Part shown: piece after piece, positions 31,133-42,129 of the stretch
Position numbering within the stretch: the first letter of the stretch is position 1
How the letters are laid out: every line of letters begins with the position of its first letter
DNA from: a virus
DNA: 64,000 nt
Reading direction: 5' to 3' (one strand)
Virus record (IMG/VR): IMGVR_UViG_3300020190_000007
Coordinates: 96,001 to 160,000 of that record
Notes under the pieces: generated by a model
What the model was told of the DNA's origin: nothing
Seen by the model: only the letters and a program-made list of their open reading frames with translations
Database searches by the model: none
Program-made: the position numbers and the translations under genes

Positions 31133-33151
31133 ATGTCAGTAGATTTTTTCGAAGAAGGAAACACAACCAACCCAAAGAAAACAAGAAAGGGTTCAACCAC
31201 CCCTATCCTTGATAACTTTTCAAGGGATTTAAACAAAATGGTAGAAGAGGGTAAAATTGACCCAATAATTGGGAGAGATGGTGAGGTTAAAAGAATTGCA
31301 CAGATATTATCTAGAAAAAAGAAAAACAACGTAGTGATAATTGGTGACGCGGGTGTGGGTAAATCGGCTTTAGTTGAGAAACTCGCTCAGATGATTGTAA
31401 AAGGAGATTGTCCATCAAATCTTTTAGACAAACGAGTTGTATCATTAGATTTAACATCTTTGGTGGCTGGTACAAAATACAGAGGTCAGTTTGAAGAACG
31501 TATTAAAGCAGTTCTAAACGAAATACAGAATGAACCTAATGTAATTGTGTTTATTGATGAAATACACACAATGGTTGGTGCTGGCAACGCTAGCGGGTCA
31601 ATGGACGCCGCTAATATTATGAAACCCGCATTAGCTCGAGGAGAAATTCAATGTATTGGGGCGACAACATTTGATGAATTTAAAAAACACATCGAGAAAG
31701 ATGGTGCATTAGTTAGAAGATTTCAAAAAATAATTTTGAAAGAACCAAGTAAGGAAGAAACAGTTCAAATTTTAAAAAATTTAAAAGATTCATATCAAAA
31801 TTTTCACAAAGTATTTTATGAACCGGAGGTTTTTGAAACTATCGTGAATTTGTCATCAAGATTTATCACAGACCGTCAGTTTCCCGATAAAGCAATTGAC
31901 GTGATGGATGAATTGGGTTCAGAAAAAAAAATAAATACCAAAATTCCTGAGATTATTGAAAAACTAAAAAAGGAATCTGATGATTTAAAAAATAGGAAGA
32001 TAGAAGTTGTAAAAAGTCAAAACTATGAACAAGCGGCTAAATTAAGAGATGAAGAAAGAAAATTACTGAGTAAATTAAATGATGAAAAAAAGAAGTGGTT
32101 AGACAAACAAAAAGACAATAAAACACCCGTAACGGTTGCAGATGTATATGAAATGATTTCACAAATTACAGGTGTACCTCTCTCTAAGATTGATGATACA
32201 GAGACCGCAAATCTTTTGAACTTAGAAGAAAAATTAAAATCTAAAGTAATTGGTCAAGACGAGGCTATTTCAATAATTTCCAAATCAATTAGAAGAAATA
32301 GGGTTGGTATTAAAGATACAAATAAACCAATAGGTTCTTTTATATTTTTAGGTTCAACTGGTGTTGGTAAAACATATCTCGCAAAATCGATTGCTGAACT
32401 ACTTTTCGGAGACTCCGAAAAAGTAATTCGTGTTGATATGAGTGAATACATGGAAAAACACAACGTGGCAAAATTAATTGGTTCACCTCCAGGTTATGTT
32501 GGTTATGATGAAGGAGGCCAACTTACTGAGAAGATTAAAAATAATCCATTTTCTGTGGTATTGTTCGATGAGGTTGAAAAAGCACACAAAGACGTTTTCA
32601 ATATCTTACTTCAAATTTTGGATGAAGGACATTTAACCGATTCGTTTGGAAGAAAAGTAAACTTTACAAACACTATAGTAATCATGACATCCAATATTGG
32701 TGCAAAAAAAGTATCTGAATTTGGTAAGGGTGTTGGTTTTAGTTCATCATCTTCAGAATCACAAAACTTTGAGGTTAAAAAATCAATCGTTCAAAAATCA
32801 TTAAAACAACACTTTAACCCTGAGTTTTTGAATCGAGTAGACGACATAATCAGTTTTAATTCGTTAGATAAAGATGTAATTAAAAAGATTATTGAAATTG
32901 AATTAAATAAGTTGTCTGTTAGATTAAAAGAAAAAAATTATAAAGTTTCTTTTGATAAGACAATTGTGGAGAGAATATCGGAACTTAATATTCAAGAAGA
33001 TTTTGGTGCAAGACCAGTTAAAAGAATCATCCAAAATATGTGTGAAGATTATTTAAGTGATTCAATCTTAAAAGGCGAAATTAAGGAGAATGATTCCATT
33101 AATTTAAAATTTAAAGACGGTGAAATAAAAATTTTTAAAAAAAGGGTGTAA
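31133..33151 (+). CDS. ClpC-like AAA+ unfoldase lacking the N-terminal domain
   Basis: Two Walker A motifs (GDAGVGKS, GSTGVGKT), UVR-like QNYEQAAKLRD, GSPPGYVGY, VGF loop. Confidence 0.92.
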   Translation: MSVDFFEEGNTTNPKKTRKGSTTPILDNFSRDLNKMVEEGKIDPIIGRDGEVKRIAQILSRKKKNNVVIIGDAGVGKSALVEKLAQMIVKGDCPSNLLDKRVVSLDLTSLVAGTKYRGQFEERIKAVLNEIQNEPNVIVFIDEIHTMVGAGNASGSMDAANIMKPALARGEIQCIGATTFDEFKKHIEKDGALVRRFQKIILKEPSKEETVQILKNLKDSYQNFHKVFYEPEVFETIVNLSSRFITDRQFPDKAIDVMDELGSEKKINTKIPEIIEKLKKESDDLKNRKIEVVKSQNYEQAAKLRDEERKLLSKLNDEKKKWLDKQKDNKTPVTVADVYEMISQITGVPLSKIDDTETANLLNLEEKLKSKVIGQDEAISIISKSIRRNRVGIKDTNKPIGSFIFLGSTGVGKTYLAKSIAELLFGDSEKVIRVDMSEYMEKHNVAKLIGSPPGYVGYDEGGQLTEKIKNNPFSVVLFDEVEKAHKDVFNILLQILDEGHLTDSFGRKVNFTNTIVIMTSNIGAKKVSEFGKGVGFSSSSSESQNFEVKKSIVQKSLKQHFNPEFLNRVDDIISFNSLDKDVIKKIIEIELNKLSVRLKEKNYKVSFDKTIVERISELNIQEDFGARPVKRIIQNMCEDYLSDSILKGEIKENDSINLKFKDGEIKIFKKRV

Positions 33152-33189
33152 ATATTCATACTTTTTAAAAAAACATATATATTTATATT

Positions 33190-33290
33190 CACACAGGATA
33201 TCTTTGCCGATTTCCTTTCGTTTTATAGTCTGTGGTGTTGAAACCACAAAATGACCACAAACCCCCGACTCTCTGTTGGGGGTTTTTATT
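33190..33290 (+). ncRNA. Candidate small RNA A
   Basis: ORF-free unit between TATTTATA (33180-33187) and a terminator; complementary to candidate RNA B. Confidence 0.55.
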
Positions 33291-33295
33291 TTTTT
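33259..33295 (+). terminator. Intrinsic terminator
   Basis: AAACCCCCGAC-TCTCT-GTTGGGGGTTT followed by a T-run. Confidence 0.85.
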
Positions 33296-33324
33296 GGTAT
33301 TCTAAAAATTATTATTTATATTTG
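33293..33324 (+). promoter_or_regulatory. Bacteroidota sigma70-type promoter
   Basis: TTTG-N20-TATATTTG. Confidence 0.65.
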
Positions 33325-33342
33325 CGATAAATCTATTTTACC

Positions 33343-33756
33343 ATGGAATATACAAAAGATTTGATATTAGTTAGGGGTTTACCCGGCTCGGGTAAATCCA
33401 CTTTAGGTGAGGTCATTCTTTATACCCCAAATAATCCAATGAAACCATTGTCGGCGGATGATTTCTTTACAGACAAGGAAGGTAACTACAATTTTGACCC
33501 AATAAAATTAAGGGAAGCTCATAACGACTGCCAACAAAGGTGTGCAAATTTGATGATGAATAGCGTCGTAAGAGTTGTTGTGTCAAATACGTTTACCCAA
33601 GAATGGGAAATGGAACCATATTTTGAAATGGCGAAAAGATACGGATATCGAATTCACACTATTGTTGTTGAAAACAGACACGGTGGTGAAAATGTCCACG
33701 GAGTACCCTCTGACAAATTAGAGATTATGAAAAATCGTTTTGAAGTAAAACTGTGA
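33343..33756 (+). CDS. P-loop kinase (polynucleotide kinase/AAA_33-like)
   Basis: RGLPGSGKST, SADDFF, VSNTF, HGVP. Confidence 0.85.
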   Translation: MEYTKDLILVRGLPGSGKSTLGEVILYTPNNPMKPLSADDFFTDKEGNYNFDPIKLREAHNDCQQRCANLMMNSVVRVVVSNTFTQEWEMEPYFEMAKRYGYRIHTIVVENRHGGENVHGVPSDKLEIMKNRFEVKL

Positions 33757-34091
33757 TAGTTAGGTTACAAAAATACCATGAGGATGGTTTAGATAATGTT
33801 GAGTTGATTTCTTTAGACCACGACTTGGGTGATAGCGCAATGAAAGAATGGTTACACGGTGTAGTTAAAAACTACGAAATCAACTACGACAATATCACCG
33901 AGAAAACAGGTATGGACTGTACCAAATGGTTAGTTAATCAGTGGTTGGATGGAAAACCTGTTGTTGATGTGGTTGTACATTCAGCCAACGCGGTTGGGAG
34001 TGCTAATATGATGGGGTACATCAATAATTATAGACATATCCACAGATTACCCCAAAACTGTGTGAGAGTTCAGTGGGACCATACGGTTTAA
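33753..34091 (+). CDS. Cyclic-phosphate-processing receiver-like protein, N-terminally truncated or chimeric
   Basis: ISLDHDLG, TGMDCTKWL, VHSANAVG; the usual N-terminal LDD motif is absent. Confidence 0.6.
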   Translation: MIVRLQKYHEDGLDNVELISLDHDLGDSAMKEWLHGVVKNYEINYDNITEKTGMDCTKWLVNQWLDGKPVVDVVVHSANAVGSANMMGYINNYRHIHRLPQNCVRVQWDHTV

Positions 34092-34174
34092 ACTTTTTTT
34101 AAACAATTTATTCATTTATTTGTATAGGTCGATTTTTTTGGTCAAATTTGTGATGAACCAAAAATTAAATCGAC

Positions 34175-34519
34175 ATGCCACCAAAACTACCTAAAAAACC
34201 AAACGATACCGTAATCAAAAAGTTAATACTCCAACAGGACTATAATAGCTTTGGTGATTTTTACAATGTTAACAAAGAACTAATTTATCTGACGTTAGTC
34301 AACCTCTTTAAAAGTCTTAAAAGAAAAGATAAAAACAATGTAATTTTAGTGTTAGGCGCTAAGATAAATGGTTTACAATGGGAAACTGAGTTAAAATTTA
34401 AAAGAAAAGAATCAATTGTTTTAGTAAGGGATATTCTACCATTCTTTGAAGGTAACGAAGATTATGAAACTTGTGCTGAAATAACCGATACGTACAATAA
34501 AATACTTCAGATTCAATAA
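34175..34519 (+). CDS. Hypothetical protein
   Basis: ORF ending in a UVR-like EDYETCAEI. Confidence 0.6.
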   Translation: MPPKLPKKPNDTVIKKLILQQDYNSFGDFYNVNKELIYLTLVNLFKSLKRKDKNNVILVLGAKINGLQWETELKFKRKESIVLVRDILPFFEGNEDYETCAEITDTYNKILQIQ

Positions 34520-34573
34520 TAAGATGATGATTGATTGATATCACCTAAACGGGTTATATCACTCCGTAATCAC

Positions 34574-34828
34574 TTACTCAGATACTGAGTCGTCTGATTT
34601 CTTTTTATGTGAGAACTTGTCTACAGTATCTGCACCCATTCCAATTGCAGTAATAACCATAACTGCGTTTACTAATTCTTCAGATGGTTTAATGTCACCA
34701 TGAGAAAAAGAATTTACAGCCATGGTACCACAAAGGAATAATGCGCCTAATAGAGCAATTACCGGTTTGATTGAAGTTGACCCTCTTTCATCTTTGAATA
34801 GGTCAATAATCCATTTTTTAAAGTTCAT
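34574..34828 (-). CDS. Small two-TM membrane protein (holin candidate)
   Basis: Two hydrophobic segments, charged tail, late motif upstream. Confidence 0.5.
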   Translation of the reverse strand: MNFKKWIIDLFKDERGSTSIKPVIALLGALFLCGTMAVNSFSHGDIKPSEELVNAVMVITAIGMGADTVDKFSHKKKSDDSVSE

Positions 34829-34963
34829 AGTTGTAATTTAGTTTAGTTTTATTTATTTGGTTTACTATAAATACCTCGGCAATGAAGATTGTTATATATA
34901 TTTTTTTAAACATTTTGAAATATGAAATTTACTTGTTATAATTTATAATAAAAGTTAACAGAT

Positions 34964-35049
34964 GAATAAGAAGCGAAGTTGGTCGATTACATCTGACTTG
35001 AAATTAGGTGTACTACAAAGTATCGTAGGTTCAAATTTTACTCTCTCCG
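34964..35049 (+). pseudogene. Degenerate tRNA-Ser(TGA)
   Basis: Anticodon arm TCTGA-CTTGAAA-TTAGG, long variable arm, GTAGG-TTCAAAT-TTTAC and 3' TCTCTCCG; 5' acceptor strand missing. Confidence 0.6.
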
Positions 35050-35104
35050 ACACAGATGAAAGAGTGGTTCGATTTCCTATAGGGATACAACTAAAAAAGA
35101 CAAT

Positions 35105-35347
35105 ATGTTAGAAAAAATTTTAGAACAATATGCAGATGAGGAAATTTTAATAGCGGATGGATTTGATTCCGCGGTATTAGGAATTGATGAAAACTCTATG
35201 AGATTGATTTACTCGGTTGAAAAGTGTTTAAAGATTCTCATGGACCAAGGTATGGACATGACTGAAGCGGTTGAATATTTTGATTTTAACGTGTCAGGTT
35301 CATACATGGGAGAGAAGACACCAATATGGTGTGATGATTTATTTTAA
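35105..35347 (+). CDS. Hypothetical phage protein
   Basis: ADGFDSAVLG...EAVEYFDFNV.GSYMGEKTP. Confidence 0.7.
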   Translation: MLEKILEQYADEEILIADGFDSAVLGIDENSMRLIYSVEKCLKILMDQGMDMTEAVEYFDFNVSGSYMGEKTPIWCDDLF

Positions 35348-35384
35348 AAAAACTTTTTGTATATTTGTATATACTTATTAAACA

Positions 35385-35550
35385 ATGATGAACTTGGTAC
35401 ACATACAACAAACGTCAAACAACCCGCTAAGTGGTAATGGGAGAGGTTTGTATTTAAGTAACCCAAGTTCGGATTTTAAGTTGTAAGTTATACTGAGAGT
35501 AAACTCTAACTAATTGAACCCGAACTTTTATTTTTGAAGTTCGGGTTTTT
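35385..35550 (+). promoter_or_regulatory. Putative leader-peptide attenuator (33-aa ORF 35385-35486 plus terminator 35517-35550)
   Basis: TATATTTG at 35360; mutually exclusive pairings 1:2, 2:3 and 3:4 with a U-tract. Confidence 0.55.
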
Positions 35551-35604
35551 TATTTTAAGTCTTTTTTTTGTATAATTGTACAATAGTTCAGATTGAACTG
35601 AATT

Positions 35605-35616
35605 TGTTCTTTGACA
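35605..35616 (+). promoter_or_regulatory. boxA-like antitermination element
   Basis: TGTTCTTTGACA just before tRNA-Leu. Confidence 0.6.
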
Positions 35617-35632
35617 TGTTGGTGAAATTGAT

Positions 35633-35718
35633 GCCGCTGTGTTGAAACAGGTAGACAAGAGAGACTTAAAATTTCTTGGACAGTAATGTCCGTGCCGGTT
35701 CGATTCCGGCCAGCGGTA
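35633..35718 (+). tRNA. tRNA-Leu(TAA)
   Basis: GCCGCTG/CAGCGGT acceptor, AGAGA-CTTAAAA-TTTCT, long variable arm, GGTTCGATTCC. Confidence 0.92.
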
Positions 35719-35782
35719 CAAAAATGGAAAACTCCTCAAATCTACAACTACGGTTATCGTAGAAGGAAATTTCCATTTTAAT

Positions 35783-35854
35783 GGGCCCATAGGTAAAGGG
35801 ATATACCCTCTCACTTCTAATGAGATATTCCAAGTTCGAATCTTGGTGGGCCTA
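35783..35854 (+). tRNA. tRNA-Arg(TCT)
   Basis: GGGCCCA/TGGGCCT, TCTCA-CTTCTAA-TGAGA, CCAAG-TTCGAAT-CTTGG. Confidence 0.9.
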
Positions 35855-36091
35855 CGAATTTAAATGATGTCTCTTTCTATGACAATTTGAACATAAAAGA
35901 ACACATTTATTAAGTTCATTTTTGATTGATTCATCAGACTTCAATCTGAGTTTTGACCAATCAACATCTTTTTCAGAAGGATTTAAATGGTGAAAATCAA
36001 AAATGACATATGAACGATTGAACTTTTGTTCGTACAGATTGTGGTAATTGGACATGTCATATGAATCCCTCGGGACATAAAAAGGTGGCAA
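35852..36091 (-). pseudogene. HNH endonuclease remnant
   Basis: FDFHHLNP...KCVLLCSNCHRKRH; N-terminal CxxC half missing. Confidence 0.65.
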
Positions 36092-36181
36092 ATGCTGTTA
36101 TCACACAGATGAAATTCAAAGTAAAAAACTAATATCGCCGATTTAAACGATAATTCATTTTATCGGTTATTTCGACGATAC

Positions 36182-36255
36182 GGTCCCTTAGCTCAGTTGG
36201 TCAGAGCACCCGACTCATAATCGGTAGGTCCACGGTTCAAGCCCGTGAGGGACCA
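36182..36255 (+). tRNA. tRNA with CAT anticodon, probably Ile2 (lysidine)
   Basis: GGTCCCTTAGCTCAG...GACTCATAATCG...GGTTCAAGCC...AGGGACCA, Ile2-type body. Confidence 0.9.
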
Positions 36256-36281
36256 CGAGATATTTATATAATAAAAAAATC

Positions 36282-36734
36282 ATGGGAATTGAATTAAAAA
36301 AGAAAAAACAACTTATCGAAAGATTAAACAAAAGACTCCTATCCGAAGCGGAAATGGAATGTCCTAAAGCAACTCAAGATTTAGAGTTAAATACCAATAA
36401 TAGAGACAAGTCAATAAAAGCGGATTATATAAAATATGGTCCACTTAATATTGACGAACCCGGTGATTATTGGGAAATGGTTGCATCTGATTGGAACACC
36501 ACTGTTGAAGCTGCTAAAAAATCACTATGTGGTAATTGTGTAGCATTTGATATATCACCAAGAATGGATGAGTGTATGCCAGGTTCGGTTTCTGATGATA
36601 GTGGTAGATTAGGGTACTGTTGGATGCATCACTTTAAATGTCACTCCGCAAGAACATGTAAAACATGGGCAAAAGGTGGTCCAATTACCGAAGATACGGT
36701 GTCCTATGAGTGGCAACAAAAAAATCAAAAATAA
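36282..36734 (+). CDS. Cys-rich hypothetical protein
   Basis: CGNC, GYCWMHHFKC, RTCKTW; late motif upstream. Confidence 0.7.
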   Translation: MGIELKKKKQLIERLNKRLLSEAEMECPKATQDLELNTNNRDKSIKADYIKYGPLNIDEPGDYWEMVASDWNTTVEAAKKSLCGNCVAFDISPRMDECMPGSVSDDSGRLGYCWMHHFKCHSARTCKTWAKGGPITEDTVSYEWQQKNQK

Positions 36735-36803
36735 TATCAACATGTGGTCGTACCCTTAACTCCAAAACCTATTAAGGAAATCGTTATGGGAAGACCACTC
36801 CAA

Positions 36804-36878
36804 GCGGGAGTAGCTCAGTGGTAGAGCATCGCCTTGCCAAGGCGAGGGCCGTGGGTTCAAATCCCATTTCCCGCTCCA
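36804..36878 (+). tRNA. tRNA-Gly(GCC) with encoded CCA
   Basis: GCGGGAG/TTCCCGC-T-CCA, TCGCC-TTGCCAA-GGCGA. Confidence 0.95.
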
Positions 36879-37123
36879 AGTAGACCTTAAAAAGGGCCCT
36901 TCCGTTGCGTACGAAAACGGCTTGTTGGGCCCGGGTCTACCTTTTAAGCGAATATCGTATAACCGACATTATCGGTTATATTAAAGACTACTTGGTAGTT
37001 ATGTGTAATAATTTTCACCAACCCACATCAACCCCACAAAATTACTACACATAACAAGGTGTTACAGTCGCAAGGGTTCGAGCCCCTCACCTTCCGCGGA
37101 GTACTTATATATTATAAAATGGT

Positions 37124-37585
37124 ATGAAAAAATTTAGAACATTGCACGGAACACTCATAACCGACGTTATAGGTTACATCAAAGATTATTTGGTGGATAA
37201 AAACGATATTGAAATATTGATTGGTTCGGATTCACAATCATTTAGTAATTCTAAAACAGTTTACGGGGTGGTTATTGCTCTTTACACAAAAGGTAAGGGT
37301 GCTCACGTATTGTGTACTAAAGACACAATACCATTTGAAAAAGATACGTCAAGTAGACTAATGACTGAAGTGTGGAAGGCGGTTGAAGTTGCTGAACACT
37401 TGAGAAACAATGGTTTACCAAAAGTCACTTGGATTGATATTGACCTTAATCCTGACCCAAAATACAAATCAAATAAGGTTTTAAGACAAGCCGTTGGTTT
37501 GGTTGAGGGTATGGGGTATAAAGTGAGATACAAACACGCGGGGGCTATGATGACCTACAGCGCGAATCATTTGGTGAGGATTTAA
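37124..37585 (+). CDS. YkuK-family RNase H-like protein
   Basis: IGSDSQ, RLMTEVWKAVEVA, DIDLN. Confidence 0.8.
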   Translation: MKKFRTLHGTLITDVIGYIKDYLVDKNDIEILIGSDSQSFSNSKTVYGVVIALYTKGKGAHVLCTKDTIPFEKDTSSRLMTEVWKAVEVAEHLRNNGLPKVTWIDIDLNPDPKYKSNKVLRQAVGLVEGMGYKVRYKHAGAMMTYSANHLVRI

Positions 37586-37615
37586 AAATTTTTTTTAATT
37601 TTTTTTAAAAAAAAC

Positions 37616-37646
37616 TTTGTTTTTACAAAAAGTTTATATATCTTTG
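37616..37646 (+). promoter_or_regulatory. Bacteroidota sigma70-type promoter for the TROVE-like/TerD operon
   Basis: TTTG-N19-TATCTTTG. Confidence 0.75.
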
Positions 37647-37682
37647 TACCATTACAATAAATTACAACATTAATACGACATT

Positions 37683-39755
37683 ATGACAACAAGGAATTTA
37701 GTTGCGTTTCAAAAAGGTTTGGTCTGTTCACCAAACGACGGTCAAGATAATAGAATCGCGGTAGCAACCGTTCAATCCCACTTAATGCAATGGGGTTACA
37801 TGTTAGACGAAGATGCTTTCTTCGCGTTGTCCAAATCAGAATTATCGTTTATTCAAAACTTCAATCATGAAGTATTGAATCATTTGAAAAATGTAATGGG
37901 TGGTAATCGTAATTACCAACCCCTATATAAGAATTTCCCACAAGAAGTGATGGTTATGTCCGACTTCGAATTATACATGAACGCAATCTTGCATTATTGG
38001 AGTAATGGTCAATGGGAACCATCAACCCACACTTACGAAAAAGAAATCAAGTTTGAAAAAATTAAATACAACTTGATTAAGTATGGTACCTCTGATAGAT
38101 TCTCAAAAATTTTCACTGACTTAGTGTCAATCAACACATCATTAACCCCCCAAGACCTTGAGATTGTTAAGTGGTTTGTATCAAGTGGTGAAACATTGAT
38201 TTTCCCTGACACAATTCCTTTCAAAGAGAATTTGTGTACACTTGCGGGAATGGGAATCGAGGGACTTCCAGTAAAGACTTCAACCGACGTGTTAAGAATA
38301 GCCGTTCATCTTTCAGGTGGAGACATTAGTTTACCTAAAGTTCCTGAAAAGGAAATTAGACTAAACAGATGGTCTACCGATAAAGGAGTAAATCCCGAAA
38401 GAGAAAAGTTTAAATTCAAGAAATTCACTCGTAAAGAGAGGAAGTACATCTTGAATTTACTTGAGAACACAAACTGTGACCCAAGAGAAATGGTTTTAAG
38501 AGACCAACGATGGGTTCGTTTAGGTGAAATCTTACACCCGGGTGAGTATAAAAACCAATTCCCTAAATCTTTTGATGCGTTCAACAAGATTAGAAACGAG
38601 AAAGTAAAATCTTGGTTCTCCCTTGTAGATGAGGGATTCAAAAAAAGTTTGGAGAATGGTTTGAGAGTATTGTCTCAAAGACCCGGTGAATTCTCTCGTC
38701 GATTAGATTGGTTGGTTCGTACATATCCACAAGATATTGAAACAATTATGAAATTATTCGGAGAAGCGGTAAAAGGTACATCAAACAAAGTATTGTTTGA
38801 GGTTTACACTCACTTTGAAGGTCGTACTGAACCTAAAACAAATAGGTCAGTTATGATTAAAGGAGCGAGAAAACGTACCGAATTACCATCACTACAAGCA
38901 ATCCCTAAAGAGATTGTGGAAACCATCCACTCTAAATTATTCGAAACTCTTAGAGATAAGTTTTCGGTAATGGATTCTTTAGGTAACTGTTGGATTGATG
39001 AGGAATTAAAAAAGATTCCTTTACCAACCAACATGAGAAGTATGAACTTCTCAACTAAACCTACCATCAGAGGTCAACGAGTTCCGCTCGATAACCCCGA
39101 TGCAAAAGTTATCAGACCATTTATTCATTGGATGGATAAACGTGGTTCTGAAGACTTGGATTTAAGTGTTACGTTTGTTGGTGAAAAAGTGTCAGAAGTA
39201 CTATCTTTCAGTAACTTGAGAGTTGGTAACTCTGTTCACTCGGGGGACGTGAGACATAGACAGGGTCCTTGTGCGGAGTACATCGACATCGATATTCAAG
39301 ATGGATTAAATCGTGGATTCAAGTACGCGGTTATTGACGTAAGAAACTTCAATGGCGGTAGTTTAAGTTCACTTGAAACATCCTTTGGTATCATGGAGAG
39401 AGAACATCCTGAATCAAACACGACATGGTTACCTGAGACAATTTCAAATTGTCAATCATTAGAATCTGAGTCGTCAAACACTTTGATTGCAATTATTGAC
39501 TTAGAAACCAAAGAGTACATCATGTTGGACATTGATTCAAGTGGTTTTGTAACCGCGAGGAGCGACTTCAATAACACCTTTAAAGTAATTCAACAATACG
39601 CTGAATTACCAAAAGTAAGTGTTTATGACCTTATTCTTCTACACGTAGAAGGTCGAGGAAAACAAGTTACCCTTGACGAGAATGTGGATACACATTTCAA
39701 GTACGAGGACTTCTGTTACTCTTATGAAGAGACAGGTAAATTGATGGGTGTCTAA
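37683..39755 (+). CDS. Helical TROVE/Ro-like protein with C-terminal TerD-like domain
   Basis: PLYKNFP, TSTDVLR, LHPGEY, RPGEFSRRLD, C-terminal DLDLS...HSGD...AEYIDID; recalls the Prok-RING_4 family architecture without the RING finger. Confidence 0.65.
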   Translation: MTTRNLVAFQKGLVCSPNDGQDNRIAVATVQSHLMQWGYMLDEDAFFALSKSELSFIQNFNHEVLNHLKNVMGGNRNYQPLYKNFPQEVMVMSDFELYMNAILHYWSNGQWEPSTHTYEKEIKFEKIKYNLIKYGTSDRFSKIFTDLVSINTSLTPQDLEIVKWFVSSGETLIFPDTIPFKENLCTLAGMGIEGLPVKTSTDVLRIAVHLSGGDISLPKVPEKEIRLNRWSTDKGVNPEREKFKFKKFTRKERKYILNLLENTNCDPREMVLRDQRWVRLGEILHPGEYKNQFPKSFDAFNKIRNEKVKSWFSLVDEGFKKSLENGLRVLSQRPGEFSRRLDWLVRTYPQDIETIMKLFGEAVKGTSNKVLFEVYTHFEGRTEPKTNRSVMIKGARKRTELPSLQAIPKEIVETIHSKLFETLRDKFSVMDSLGNCWIDEELKKIPLPTNMRSMNFSTKPTIRGQRVPLDNPDAKVIRPFIHWMDKRGSEDLDLSVTFVGEKVSEVLSFSNLRVGNSVHSGDVRHRQGPCAEYIDIDIQDGLNRGFKYAVIDVRNFNGGSLSSLETSFGIMEREHPESNTTWLPETISNCQSLESESSNTLIAIIDLETKEYIMLDIDSSGFVTARSDFNNTFKVIQQYAELPKVSVYDLILLHVEGRGKQVTLDENVDTHFKYEDFCYSYEETGKLMGV

Positions 39756-39766
39756 ACTCACCCATT

Positions 39767-39778
39767 AGTTCTTTGAAA
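39767..39778 (+). promoter_or_regulatory. boxA-like element
   Basis: AGTTCTTTGAAA just before the RNA array. Confidence 0.55.
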
Positions 39779-39783
39779 TATTA

Positions 39784-40202
39784 TATGTGGCTATGTGAGC
39801 CATTGAGAGGATAGTCAACTGACCATCACATCAAACCACGGAGTGGTTCTGTTTTGGTCCTTAGCGGTGACAAAAGTATCAATGCAAACGTCTTACTTCT
39901 AACAAACAACTATCAGATACGAAAACCAGACACACAATTTCCACATAACTTCTTAGACGGCTATGTATTGGGTTACTTCTGCTAGGGGACTAATGTCCCC
40001 CCTTCTATAACAATTATATGTTACATTACCCGTACTTTTTCCGTCAATCATATTGAGTGGCTATCTATCAACTTACTTCTAAATTTTAAGCAAAAAATCA
40101 AAAATTAGTTGTAGTCTTTCCACTTTTAAAACACACATGGATATGTGTTCAGTTATTTCTACTTTGACCGATAATCAAAACAATTATTGACACAGTTTCC
40201 AT
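39784..40202 (+). ncRNA. Array of four structured RNAs (39784-39947, 39956-40045, 40056-40124, 40137-40202)
   Basis: Each unit has GG(C/A)TAT...TTA(C/T)TTCT...TTTCC with three stems that show compensatory changes between units. Confidence 0.8.
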
Positions 40203-40806: not shown

Positions 40807-41526
40807 ATGAGAATAGTATGTATTTCTGACACCCACTCTTTACACAATGGTATGTTGTATAACATACCACAGGGAGATATTTTGATACACTCAGGAGATT
40901 GCACAAATGTCGGACGACAAAATGATGTTCGTGATTTTATTAATTGGTTTCAAAATATACAAGGATTTACCCATAAAATTTTCATTGCAGGTAACCACGA
41001 TTTTGCGTTTCAAAGAAAACCAACATGGTTAAATCTTTACATAGACCCATCAATTCTCACAGAAAATAATGTTACTTATTTGGAAGATGGTGAGTTGGAA
41101 ATTATTAGTTCAGAATTCTCAAGACCAATAAAAATTTATGGTTCTCCATGGCAACCTGAATTTTTTGATTGGGCATTTAATTTACCAAGAAACGGTGAGG
41201 TGTTAAAAGAAAAATGGGACTCAATCCCAAATAATACCGATATCTTAATAACACATGGTCCACCACATGGAATTAGAGATTTTACACCCAATAATTTACA
41301 GGTCGGATGTGAACTTTTAAGAGAGCGTGTTGAAGTTTTAAAACCACTTTTACATGTTTTTGGTCACATACATGGTGCATATGGTGTTGCAATGATTGGC
41401 GATACAGTATTTGCTAACGCATCAACTTGTACAGAAAGGTATCGACCAATAAATAAACCATTAGTTTTTGATTTAATCGAAAATGATGGTATATTTACAA
41501 TAAATTATATAGACGAAGAAAATTAA
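40807..41526 (+). CDS. Calcineurin-like metallophosphoesterase
   Basis: ISDTH, HSGD, AGNHD, THGPP, FGHIH. Confidence 0.92.
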   Translation: MRIVCISDTHSLHNGMLYNIPQGDILIHSGDCTNVGRQNDVRDFINWFQNIQGFTHKIFIAGNHDFAFQRKPTWLNLYIDPSILTENNVTYLEDGELEIISSEFSRPIKIYGSPWQPEFFDWAFNLPRNGEVLKEKWDSIPNNTDILITHGPPHGIRDFTPNNLQVGCELLRERVEVLKPLLHVFGHIHGAYGVAMIGDTVFANASTCTERYRPINKPLVFDLIENDGIFTINYIDEEN

Positions 41527-41527
41527 C

Positions 41528-41550
41528 TATCTTTGTCTTGTTCTTTGACT
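41528..41550 (+). promoter_or_regulatory. TAnnTTTG promoter element plus boxA-like element before tmRNA
   Basis: TATCTTTG at 41528; TGTTCTTTGACT at 41539. Confidence 0.6.
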
Positions 41551-41553
41551 TAT

Positions 41554-42129
41554 GGGGGTGTATGGAATTGATTGGCGTTGATATGGTAAATGGGCACGTA
41601 GTCGGATGTCATCTACGACTTTAATCCACGGTGGTAAATTTTAAACGGCAACGTTTATAACCAAATGGAAGTAGCAGGTCTTCTTGCGACTTCTAAAGTT
41701 GCAGCCTAATTGGTTGTAACTAACGGGTCGACGGACAGATAACCTTGGAACAGAAGTCCTTGTAGGGTGTGGTTTCTATCCTAAAAGAAACAAAGTGGAA
41801 GATTAGTTCTCAGTAAACCGAACCACTTTAAAATAAGGGAATTGTGAATTTCGGAGTATTAGAAAATACTGTCCTAAACGTGTAGTCCATTTATTGTATT
41901 GCGAGCAAGACGCGGGTTTTTAATCGAGCCCCTTCATATCGTGAGATATGTCGAAAATCGGATGAACTCAGGGGAAGTCTTTTAGATAATCCTGAGCCAA
42001 GCCTGATAGGAACAGGAAGGTGCAGAGACTAGTGGGTGATAGACGCTTCTATCGTAATACCACATTAGCGTCCGACATCTCGTTGAGATGATGATATAGT
42101 CCAATAATTGTCGAAACCCGCCACCTCCA
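41554..42129 (+). ncRNA. ssrA: tmRNA, intron-containing
   Basis: GGGGGTG/CACCTCC-A acceptor with G3-U70; tag ORF 41647-41709 GNVYNQMEVAGLLATSKVAA*; T-arm GCGGG-TTCGAAA-CCCGC after splicing. Confidence 0.93.
41918..42110 (+). mobile_element. Group I intron (193 nt, IC3-like) in the tmRNA T-loop
   Basis: AATCCTGAGCCAA, GTGCAGAGACT and GATATAGTCC core elements; 5' exon ends in U, intron ends in G; internal guide TCGA-GCCC pairs with both exons. Confidence 0.9.

Follow-up and report, generated by a model that had tools for sequence, protein, structure and literature searches.

Four tRNA genes were found in this virus record, and all of them lie immediately 3' of a short element in which a small open reading frame (ORF) is followed by a terminator, which raises the question of what such an element does to the genes behind it. 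The window analyzed here, a stretch of 64,000 nucleotides with a GC content of about 31%, corresponds to bases 96001–160000 of the 170,860-bp IMG/VR virus record IMGVR_UViG_3300020190_000007, the completeness of which was estimated at 55% by CheckV. No close relative of the window could be found in the INPHARED phage set, where the matches were to tRNA and HNH fragments only. A first-pass annotation, made from the letters of the sequence, had proposed that the element is a leader-peptide attenuator that could switch on the tRNA genes when translation stalls. The analysis described below leads to a similar answer, in that the element is probably a ribosome-mediated (leader-peptide) transcription attenuator, one of a class that heads the tRNA blocks of Bacteroidota phages.

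The features of the element are listed in Table 1. The leader transcript is predicted to start at about 35372–35376, downstream of the P1 box, and the second ATG of the leader ORF (35388) is the start that is kept in all relatives. Near the beginning of the ORF, GAACTTGG (35390–35397) is complementary over 8 bp to CCAAGTTC (35463–35470), and the resulting 1:2 protector helix encloses most of the ORF. The overlapping stretch AAGTTCGG (35465–35472) is complementary, also over 8 bp, to CCGAACTT (35520–35527) in the 5' arm of an intrinsic terminator. This terminator (35516–35548; 13 pairs, a 7-nt loop, and a T-run) stands between the leader ORF and the tRNA genes, with 30 nt from the leader stop codon to its 5' arm. 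The positions given in the first-pass annotation for the ORF, the boxes, and the segments of the 1:2, 2:3, and 3:4 pairings were all borne out on the sequence, as was the U-tract, and the codons that it had picked out are all present in the leader (TTG three times, GGT twice, TTA, ATA, and AGA). These codons are dispersed, mostly occurring one to three times each, and no tandem runs of a regulatory codon were seen in the window leader. The name Ile2, which had been given to the tRNA with the CAT anticodon, is reasonable, the gene being closest to E. coli genes annotated as tRNA-Ile (81–84% over the full length).

Table 1. Features of the leader/terminator element and the tRNA genes behind it, in window coordinates
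Feature	Position	Strand	Basis or remark
P1, Bacteroidota-type -7 promoter box (TAnnTTTG), TATATTTG	35360..35367	+	Invariant in 9 aligned relatives
Leader ORF, ATG start, 33 codons	35385..35486	+	Start/stop columns, 3-nt indels, third-position changes
Segment 1, GAACTTGG, 5' strand of 1:2 protector helix	35390..35397	+	92.3% of cells paired, covariation
Segment 2, alternates between segment 1 and the terminator 5' arm (antiterminator) as partner; codons 27–30	35463..35472	+	
Segment 3, 5' arm of intrinsic terminator	35516..35528	+	96% paired in 13 family members
Segment 4 (3' arm, 35536–35548) and T-run	35536..35556	+	
P2, second -7-like box, TATAATTG, one mismatch to TAnnTTTG	35571..35578	+	Conserved in window-type relatives
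BoxA-like 17-mer, GTTCTTTGACATGTTGG, at or near 5' end of P2 transcript	35606..35622	+	Invariant in relatives
tRNA-Leu(taa)	35633..35719	+	
tRNA-Arg(tct)	35783..35855	+	
tRNA with CAT anticodon, Ile2-like	36182..36256	+	Similarity to E. coli tRNA-Ile
tRNA-Gly(gcc)	36804..36878	+	

The leader folds better than shuffled versions of itself (z = -3.29), with 1 of 200 shuffles equally good. In the nascent RNA, before segment 4, the folds with 1:2 enforced (-29.6 kcal/mol) and with 2:3 enforced (-30.2 kcal/mol) are isoenergetic, and in the full leader RNA the state combining 1:2 with 3:4 is favored (-47.7 versus -36.2 kcal/mol). An Rfam search of 33000–39000 at E ≤ 5 returned no match in 35360–35616, to a T-box or otherwise. 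Segment 2 resembles a T-loop, and a degenerate tRNA- or tmRNA-like identity was considered for the element; this was dropped because no cloverleaf fits and the reading frame is conserved.

To identify related units, searches were carried out using two flanking proteins together with a degenerate pattern, which gave 12 further distinct copies of the window-type unit, with DNA identities of 73–85% where blastn aligned and lower values in three more distant copies. A scan with a degenerate-codon pattern contributed only two added family members and two chance matches inside a large protein. All 12 of these related phage contigs retain the 33-codon ORF together with the terminator and both the 1:2 and the 2:3 pairing. 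Two alignments were used, one of 9 aligned relatives for the P1 box and one of 13 family members for the ORF and the pair counts. In the latter, the start and stop columns of the ORF are kept, indels occur in threes only, and several substitutions fall in third positions. For the 1:2 helix the paired fraction is 92%, 3 of the 8 pairs carry compensatory changes on both sides, and none of 500 shuffles reached the covariation score, the slid controls being far lower. The terminator and the 2:3 helix are 96 and 94% paired, respectively; the latter is nearly invariant, and its covariation within the family, where the pairing barely varies, is not significant (113 of 500 shuffles scored as high). 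The first-pass annotation had suggested that its reading be checked by conservation in relatives, and the ORF, both alternative helices, and the terminator are indeed retained in all 13 family members.

The tRNA genes of the relatives form an array of about 18–25, divided into two blocks, each of which has its own leader ORF and terminator. The window-type unit is located between tRNA-Glu plus a gene for an 80-aa protein on one side and tRNA-Leu(taa) on the other. An nhmmer profile of this unit gave a weaker second match in the same relatives, and this match heads the first tRNA block. The first-block unit contains a TAnnTTTG box and a conserved ORF of 29–31 codons, the peptide of which is unrelated to that of the window-type leader. 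Its terminator has a different stem sequence, and toward its 3' end the ORF contains 8 nt that are complementary to the 5' arm of that terminator. That the same geometry recurs with another sequence supports the predicted 2:3 alternative better than any other result. A tRNA-Ala-like gene comes directly after the first-block unit, with no promoter box in between, followed by a boxA-like 17-mer (see below) and tRNA-Phe. The order of unit, tRNA-Ala(tgc)-like gene, and boxA copy can be seen at L083:1310-1600 and at equivalent places in L082, L085, L086, L094, L170, and L172, and it mimics the host rRNA spacer, in which tRNA-Ala is followed by boxA. The tRNA-Ala(tgc)-like gene was missed by ARAGORN at some of these loci.

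The codons of the leaders were compared with the tRNAs behind them. The amino acids encoded by the first-unit ORF are those of the 14 tRNAs that follow it, with almost none of the others, and the window-type ORF in the relatives uses the amino acids of the 12 tRNAs that follow it. This distinction holds at the level of codons (AGA and not CGN, ATA and not ATY, AGT plus TCN, and TTR plus CTN). For a wider comparison, viral contigs were scanned for the 17-mer, and a detector was applied that asked for a TAnnTTTG-like box, an ATG-initiated ORF of 15–60 codons, a stop codon 5–60 nt before an intrinsic terminator, and a tRNA within 220 nt, criteria that ignore codon content but may bias the set of units. 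This yielded 50 distinct leaders in 22 sequence families. Against their own blocks the leaders showed a precision of 0.61 and a coverage of 0.94, compared with 0.29 and 0.55 when each was matched to the other block of its phage, and the own block scored higher in 7 of the 7 families that allowed both comparisons (sign test, p = 0.008). When random codons drawn from the codon usage of the phage served as the reference, p < 0.05 was obtained at 15 of 26 loci for precision and at 12 of 26 for coverage. The ORF frame also exceeded the other two frames, in precision (0.61 versus 0.34 and 0.34) as well as in coverage (0.90 versus 0.58 and 0.54), with p about 1e-8, a value that, like all those computed over 46–50 leaders, is too optimistic because the leaders are phylogenetically related (22 families). 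The sign test at the family level is the honest significance figure for the codon match.

The leader in the window departs from this picture when it is compared with the four tRNAs left behind it, for which neither precision (0.25 versus a background of 0.15, p = 0.09) nor coverage (4 of 4, p = 0.19) is significant. Compared with the 12-tRNA second block of the relatives, the same leader has a precision of 0.75 versus 0.38 (p < 5e-5) and a coverage of 12 of 12 (p = 0.001), and it is depleted for codons of the first block. The earlier claim that the leader codons are cognate to the downstream tRNAs is upheld for the blocks of the relatives, where the match is to the own block and in the own frame only, and falls short of significance for the four tRNAs of the window taken alone.

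Two further features lie between the terminator and the first tRNA. The first is P2, and a TAnnTTTG box is present after the terminator in every relative of the window-type unit. In this AT-rich genome TAnnTTTG occurs in 255 copies and is only slightly enriched in noncoding DNA; the motif was set aside as stand-alone promoter evidence, and because it is so frequent by chance, the case for both P1 and P2 is built on conservation and not on the motif. The second is the boxA-like 17-mer, which lies just before tRNA-Leu in all aligned window-type copies. Of 122 genome hits to the exact 17-mer (A-variant), 70 lie in the Bacteroidota 16S–23S spacer downstream of tRNA-Ile/Ala, and 9 further genome hits adjoin tRNA-Ile/Ala on short contigs. 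This location corresponds to that of boxA in the spacer, and the motif is similar to the boxA consensus of E. coli. A boxA-like 17-mer is present at more than 115 phage loci, mostly ahead of tRNAs. Identical or near-identical copies are also seen in the window at 39768–39784, before a putative structured-RNA array, and at 41540–41555, before a tmRNA-like gene. We read the 17-mer as a copied antitermination signal, which may render polymerases processive through the hairpin-rich tRNA block.

The first-pass annotation had held that its reading would fail if the tRNAs were transcribed from a promoter downstream of the terminator. This objection applies in part, as the P2 box is conserved in all window-type relatives and may act as a promoter. 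Because the P2 box and boxA follow the terminator, the switch probably modulates tRNA transcription rather than controlling it alone; the tRNAs of this phage probably also receive attenuator-independent transcription from P2, and the switch would add to this basal supply. That the leader still tracks its block despite P2 argues that read-through matters.

The same arrangement would allow another reading, in which the leader is an independent small gene that has P1 and a terminator of its own and yields either a small RNA or a 33-aa peptide, and in which the tRNAs are transcribed solely from P2 and neither the pairing nor the codons are regulatory. P1 and the terminator are self-contained, P2 and then boxA are conserved right behind them, and the peptide is well conserved within the window-type family. 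In phage T4, too, small stable RNAs with no assigned role are encoded in the tRNA region. We nonetheless regard this reading as improbable on several grounds. The leader is found only where tRNA blocks follow, and it is missing from all of the approximately 65 tRNA-free loci at which a homologue of the upstream 80-aa gene is present. In 22 families this position is taken by unrelated peptides, and the codons of each fit the block behind it in the ORF frame only. Only 19 of the 50 units, the entire window-type family among them, have a promoter-like box between the terminator and the first tRNA; the other 31 have none, and in 15 of these 31 the tRNA begins 8–19 nt past the stem. The peptide matched no PHROG or Pfam family. 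Finally, the Ser codon in segment 2 is TCG in all 13 family members, and the invariance of this codon, which accounts for 7.9% of the Ser codons of the phage, suggests a constraint at the RNA level besides coding.

The strength of the terminator (13 pairs), its place between two transcription units in the relatives, and the presence of P2 behind it would also suit an insulator, that is, an untranslated structured leader that ends transcription from upstream (the first block and the 80-aa gene) before P2. This is very unlikely, however, because it leaves unexplained the conserved P1 box, the conserved frame with its 3-nt indels, the frame-specific match of codons to anticodons, and the placement of a partner of the terminator arm exactly where a terminating ribosome would sit.

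The effect of ribosome position was modeled by placing a ribosome footprint at each codon and folding the RNA before segment 4, an equilibrium proxy for a kinetic process. In the window, the pairing probability of segment 3 was 0.60 with no ribosome, 0.8–0.87 for stalls at codons 2–23, and 0.14 once the ribosome stood at the stop codon. Averaged over the 50 leaders, it was 0.68 with no ribosome, 0.75 for early positions, 0.69 in mid-ORF, and 0.38 at the stop codon. Dinucleotide-shuffled leaders gave 0.50 with no ribosome and 0.47 at the stop codon, and a Wilcoxon test on the difference gave p = 8e-11, a value that is too optimistic because the 50 leaders are related. In all 50 leaders the stop codon lies 17–37 nt ahead of the 5' arm of the terminator, so that a terminating ribosome masks segment 2 and not the terminator. 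According to the model, a ribosome at the stop codon would hide the antiterminator partner, and a stalled ribosome would leave that partner free. A reversed logic, in which efficient translation of the leader promotes read-through and tRNA synthesis is positively coupled to translational capacity, could draw on the established suppression of terminators by ribosome–RNAP coupling in pyrBI-type attenuation in enterobacteria and on the ability of the window RNA to form 1:2 plus 3:4 without a ribosome, but it has little to recommend it given this spacing of the stop codon and the modeled pairing of segment 3, which reaches its minimum when the ribosome is on the stop codon.

Leader-peptide attenuation remains the preferred reading, and the trp/his attenuator geometry named in the first-pass annotation draws support from ORF conservation, 1:2 covariation, the second unit, the codon match, and the folding model. 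The mechanism that we propose would run as follows. The host-type promoter P1 would start a short transcript, the 33-codon ORF of which would be translated. A ribosome that reaches the stop codon without delay would mask segment 2, the 3:4 terminator would form, and transcription would end at about 35550. Scarcity of a needed tRNA could instead stall the ribosome at any codon from 2 to about 23, in which case segment 1 would be held and segment 2 would pair with segment 3; with 2:3 paired, no terminator would form, and the polymerase would continue over boxA into the tRNA genes. In the event of no translation, 1:2 and 3:4 could both form, so that termination would be expected too. The leader would in this way serve as a checklist of the codons of its block, with tRNA output governed, through feedback, by how quickly exactly those codons are decoded. 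Such a design would sense slow decoding of the leader codons, whatever the cause; depletion or cleavage of host tRNAs, the trigger suggested in the first-pass annotation, could be one such cause.

In the window the output of this switch has been eroded. Synteny with two relatives shows that the whole first unit and its 13–14 tRNAs are absent, about 2.7 kb being replaced by about 130 nt near 34938–35065. Within the second block, the Pro-Asn-Leu(tag)-Tyr-Ile(tat) stretch has been lost, and about 300 nt with an HNH-like remnant are found instead (35856–36160). The genes for Gly(tcc), Gln, and most of Ser(gct) have also been lost (scar at 36880–37100), the 3' half of Ser(gct) surviving near 37060–37100. 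Overall, the array has shrunk from about 25 tRNAs to four, and the window-type block from about 12 to 4, but none of these losses has touched the leader, its two helices, or the terminator. Judged by its sequence, the leader keeps the ancestral checklist, and the sensor would now report many codons that the phage no longer serves. The window element is a partly vestigial member of its class with an extra downstream promoter-like box. A 79-codon ORF on the minus strand (35852–36091), located between tRNA-Arg and the Ile2-like tRNA, is a likely HNH remnant, as the DNA at 35877–35999 is 72–74% identical to HNH homing-endonuclease genes of Escherichia and Salmonella phages. Farther downstream, the start of an RNaseH-like gene (37124–37585, PF04308) appears partly duplicated about 200 nt upstream, as noted by eye (36957–37000 versus 37157–37200), and this may be a recombination scar.

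The neighborhood of the element contains genes for a ClpB-like ATPase, an AAA_33 polynucleotide-kinase-like protein, a cREC_REC domain protein, and a metallophosphoesterase, together with a tmRNA-like gene. The four protein genes flank the tRNA/tmRNA region (31133–34091 and 40807–41526) and look like an island for RNA repair and translation maintenance. The tmRNA-like gene (41554–42120, plus strand) matched Rfam RF00023 with 35.4 bits, below the gathering score (E 6e-12), and was not called at this position in an ARAGORN run. Its 3' part is split by a group I intron (RF00028, 41908–42120), which at 68.8 bits is above the gathering score, and the gene is preceded by TATCTTTG and a boxA-like motif. 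Between the tRNAs and this gene, behind a gene for a 690-aa protein, an ORF-free region on the plus strand (39780–40186) contains four units that share GGCTAT...TTACTTCT at a spacing of 80–100 nt.

The phage units share with the trpL, hisL, leuL, pheL, and thrL attenuators a short ORF, four segments with mutually exclusive 1:2/2:3/3:4 pairing, and an intrinsic terminator, as well as the masking of segment 2 by a ribosome at the stop codon and regulatory codons that are cognate to the downstream supply. The sensing of several amino acids at once is shared with the multivalent ilvGMEDA and thr leaders. In contrast to these attenuators of amino acid operons, which regulate biosynthetic enzymes, the phage units precede tRNA genes and lie behind Bacteroidota-type promoters; tandem codon runs are replaced by up to 12–18 codon species that occur once or a few times each, and the window-type unit has an extra promoter-like box and a boxA copy before the genes. 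T-box riboswitches likewise establish feedback between tRNA status and terminator read-through, but a T-box binds uncharged tRNA directly, without an ORF, and controls synthetase or amino acid genes. In drug-inducible leader-peptide attenuators (erm-, bmrCD-, vmlR-, and msrD-type), a stall in a short upstream ORF switches between terminator and antiterminator (e.g. PMC4191407 and PMC10314930), as is proposed here. Their stall, however, depends on an antibiotic and a specific nascent peptide, whereas in the phage leaders the peptides vary and the codons match the anticodons, which together point to decoding speed as the signal. As for boxA of rRNA operons, which is NusB/S10-dependent, the phage 17-mer is identical to, or one base off, the spacer motif after tRNA-Ala and likewise lies early in the transcript. 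The phage copy differs in that it heads tRNA blocks; its position and identity suggest that it may recruit NusB/S10 and make the polymerase resistant to termination.

Leader-peptide attenuation has been described for amino acid, synthetase, and resistance genes, and in the full-text literature, as far as it was covered, no description of leader-peptide control of tRNA genes was found. On balance we lean toward the joint reading that checklist attenuators are an undescribed form of tRNA gene control, that boxA makes the polymerases that pass them resistant to termination, and that the checklist outlives its tRNAs. The eroded array of this phage is a natural experiment on how fast a sensor decays relative to its output. 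The analysis also flags dozens of unannotated small ORFs as candidate regulators and offers compact parts for reporting tRNA availability in Bacteroidota. If true, the proposed mechanism would mean that these phages carry natural sensors that monitor decoding speed over many codons and place tRNA supply under feedback control, and it would explain the splitting of the arrays into amino acid-sorted blocks. It would also provide a route by which a phage could respond to codon usage mismatch or to tRNA-cleaving host defenses, and it bears on how phages with large tRNA arrays set the timing and amount of their tRNA.
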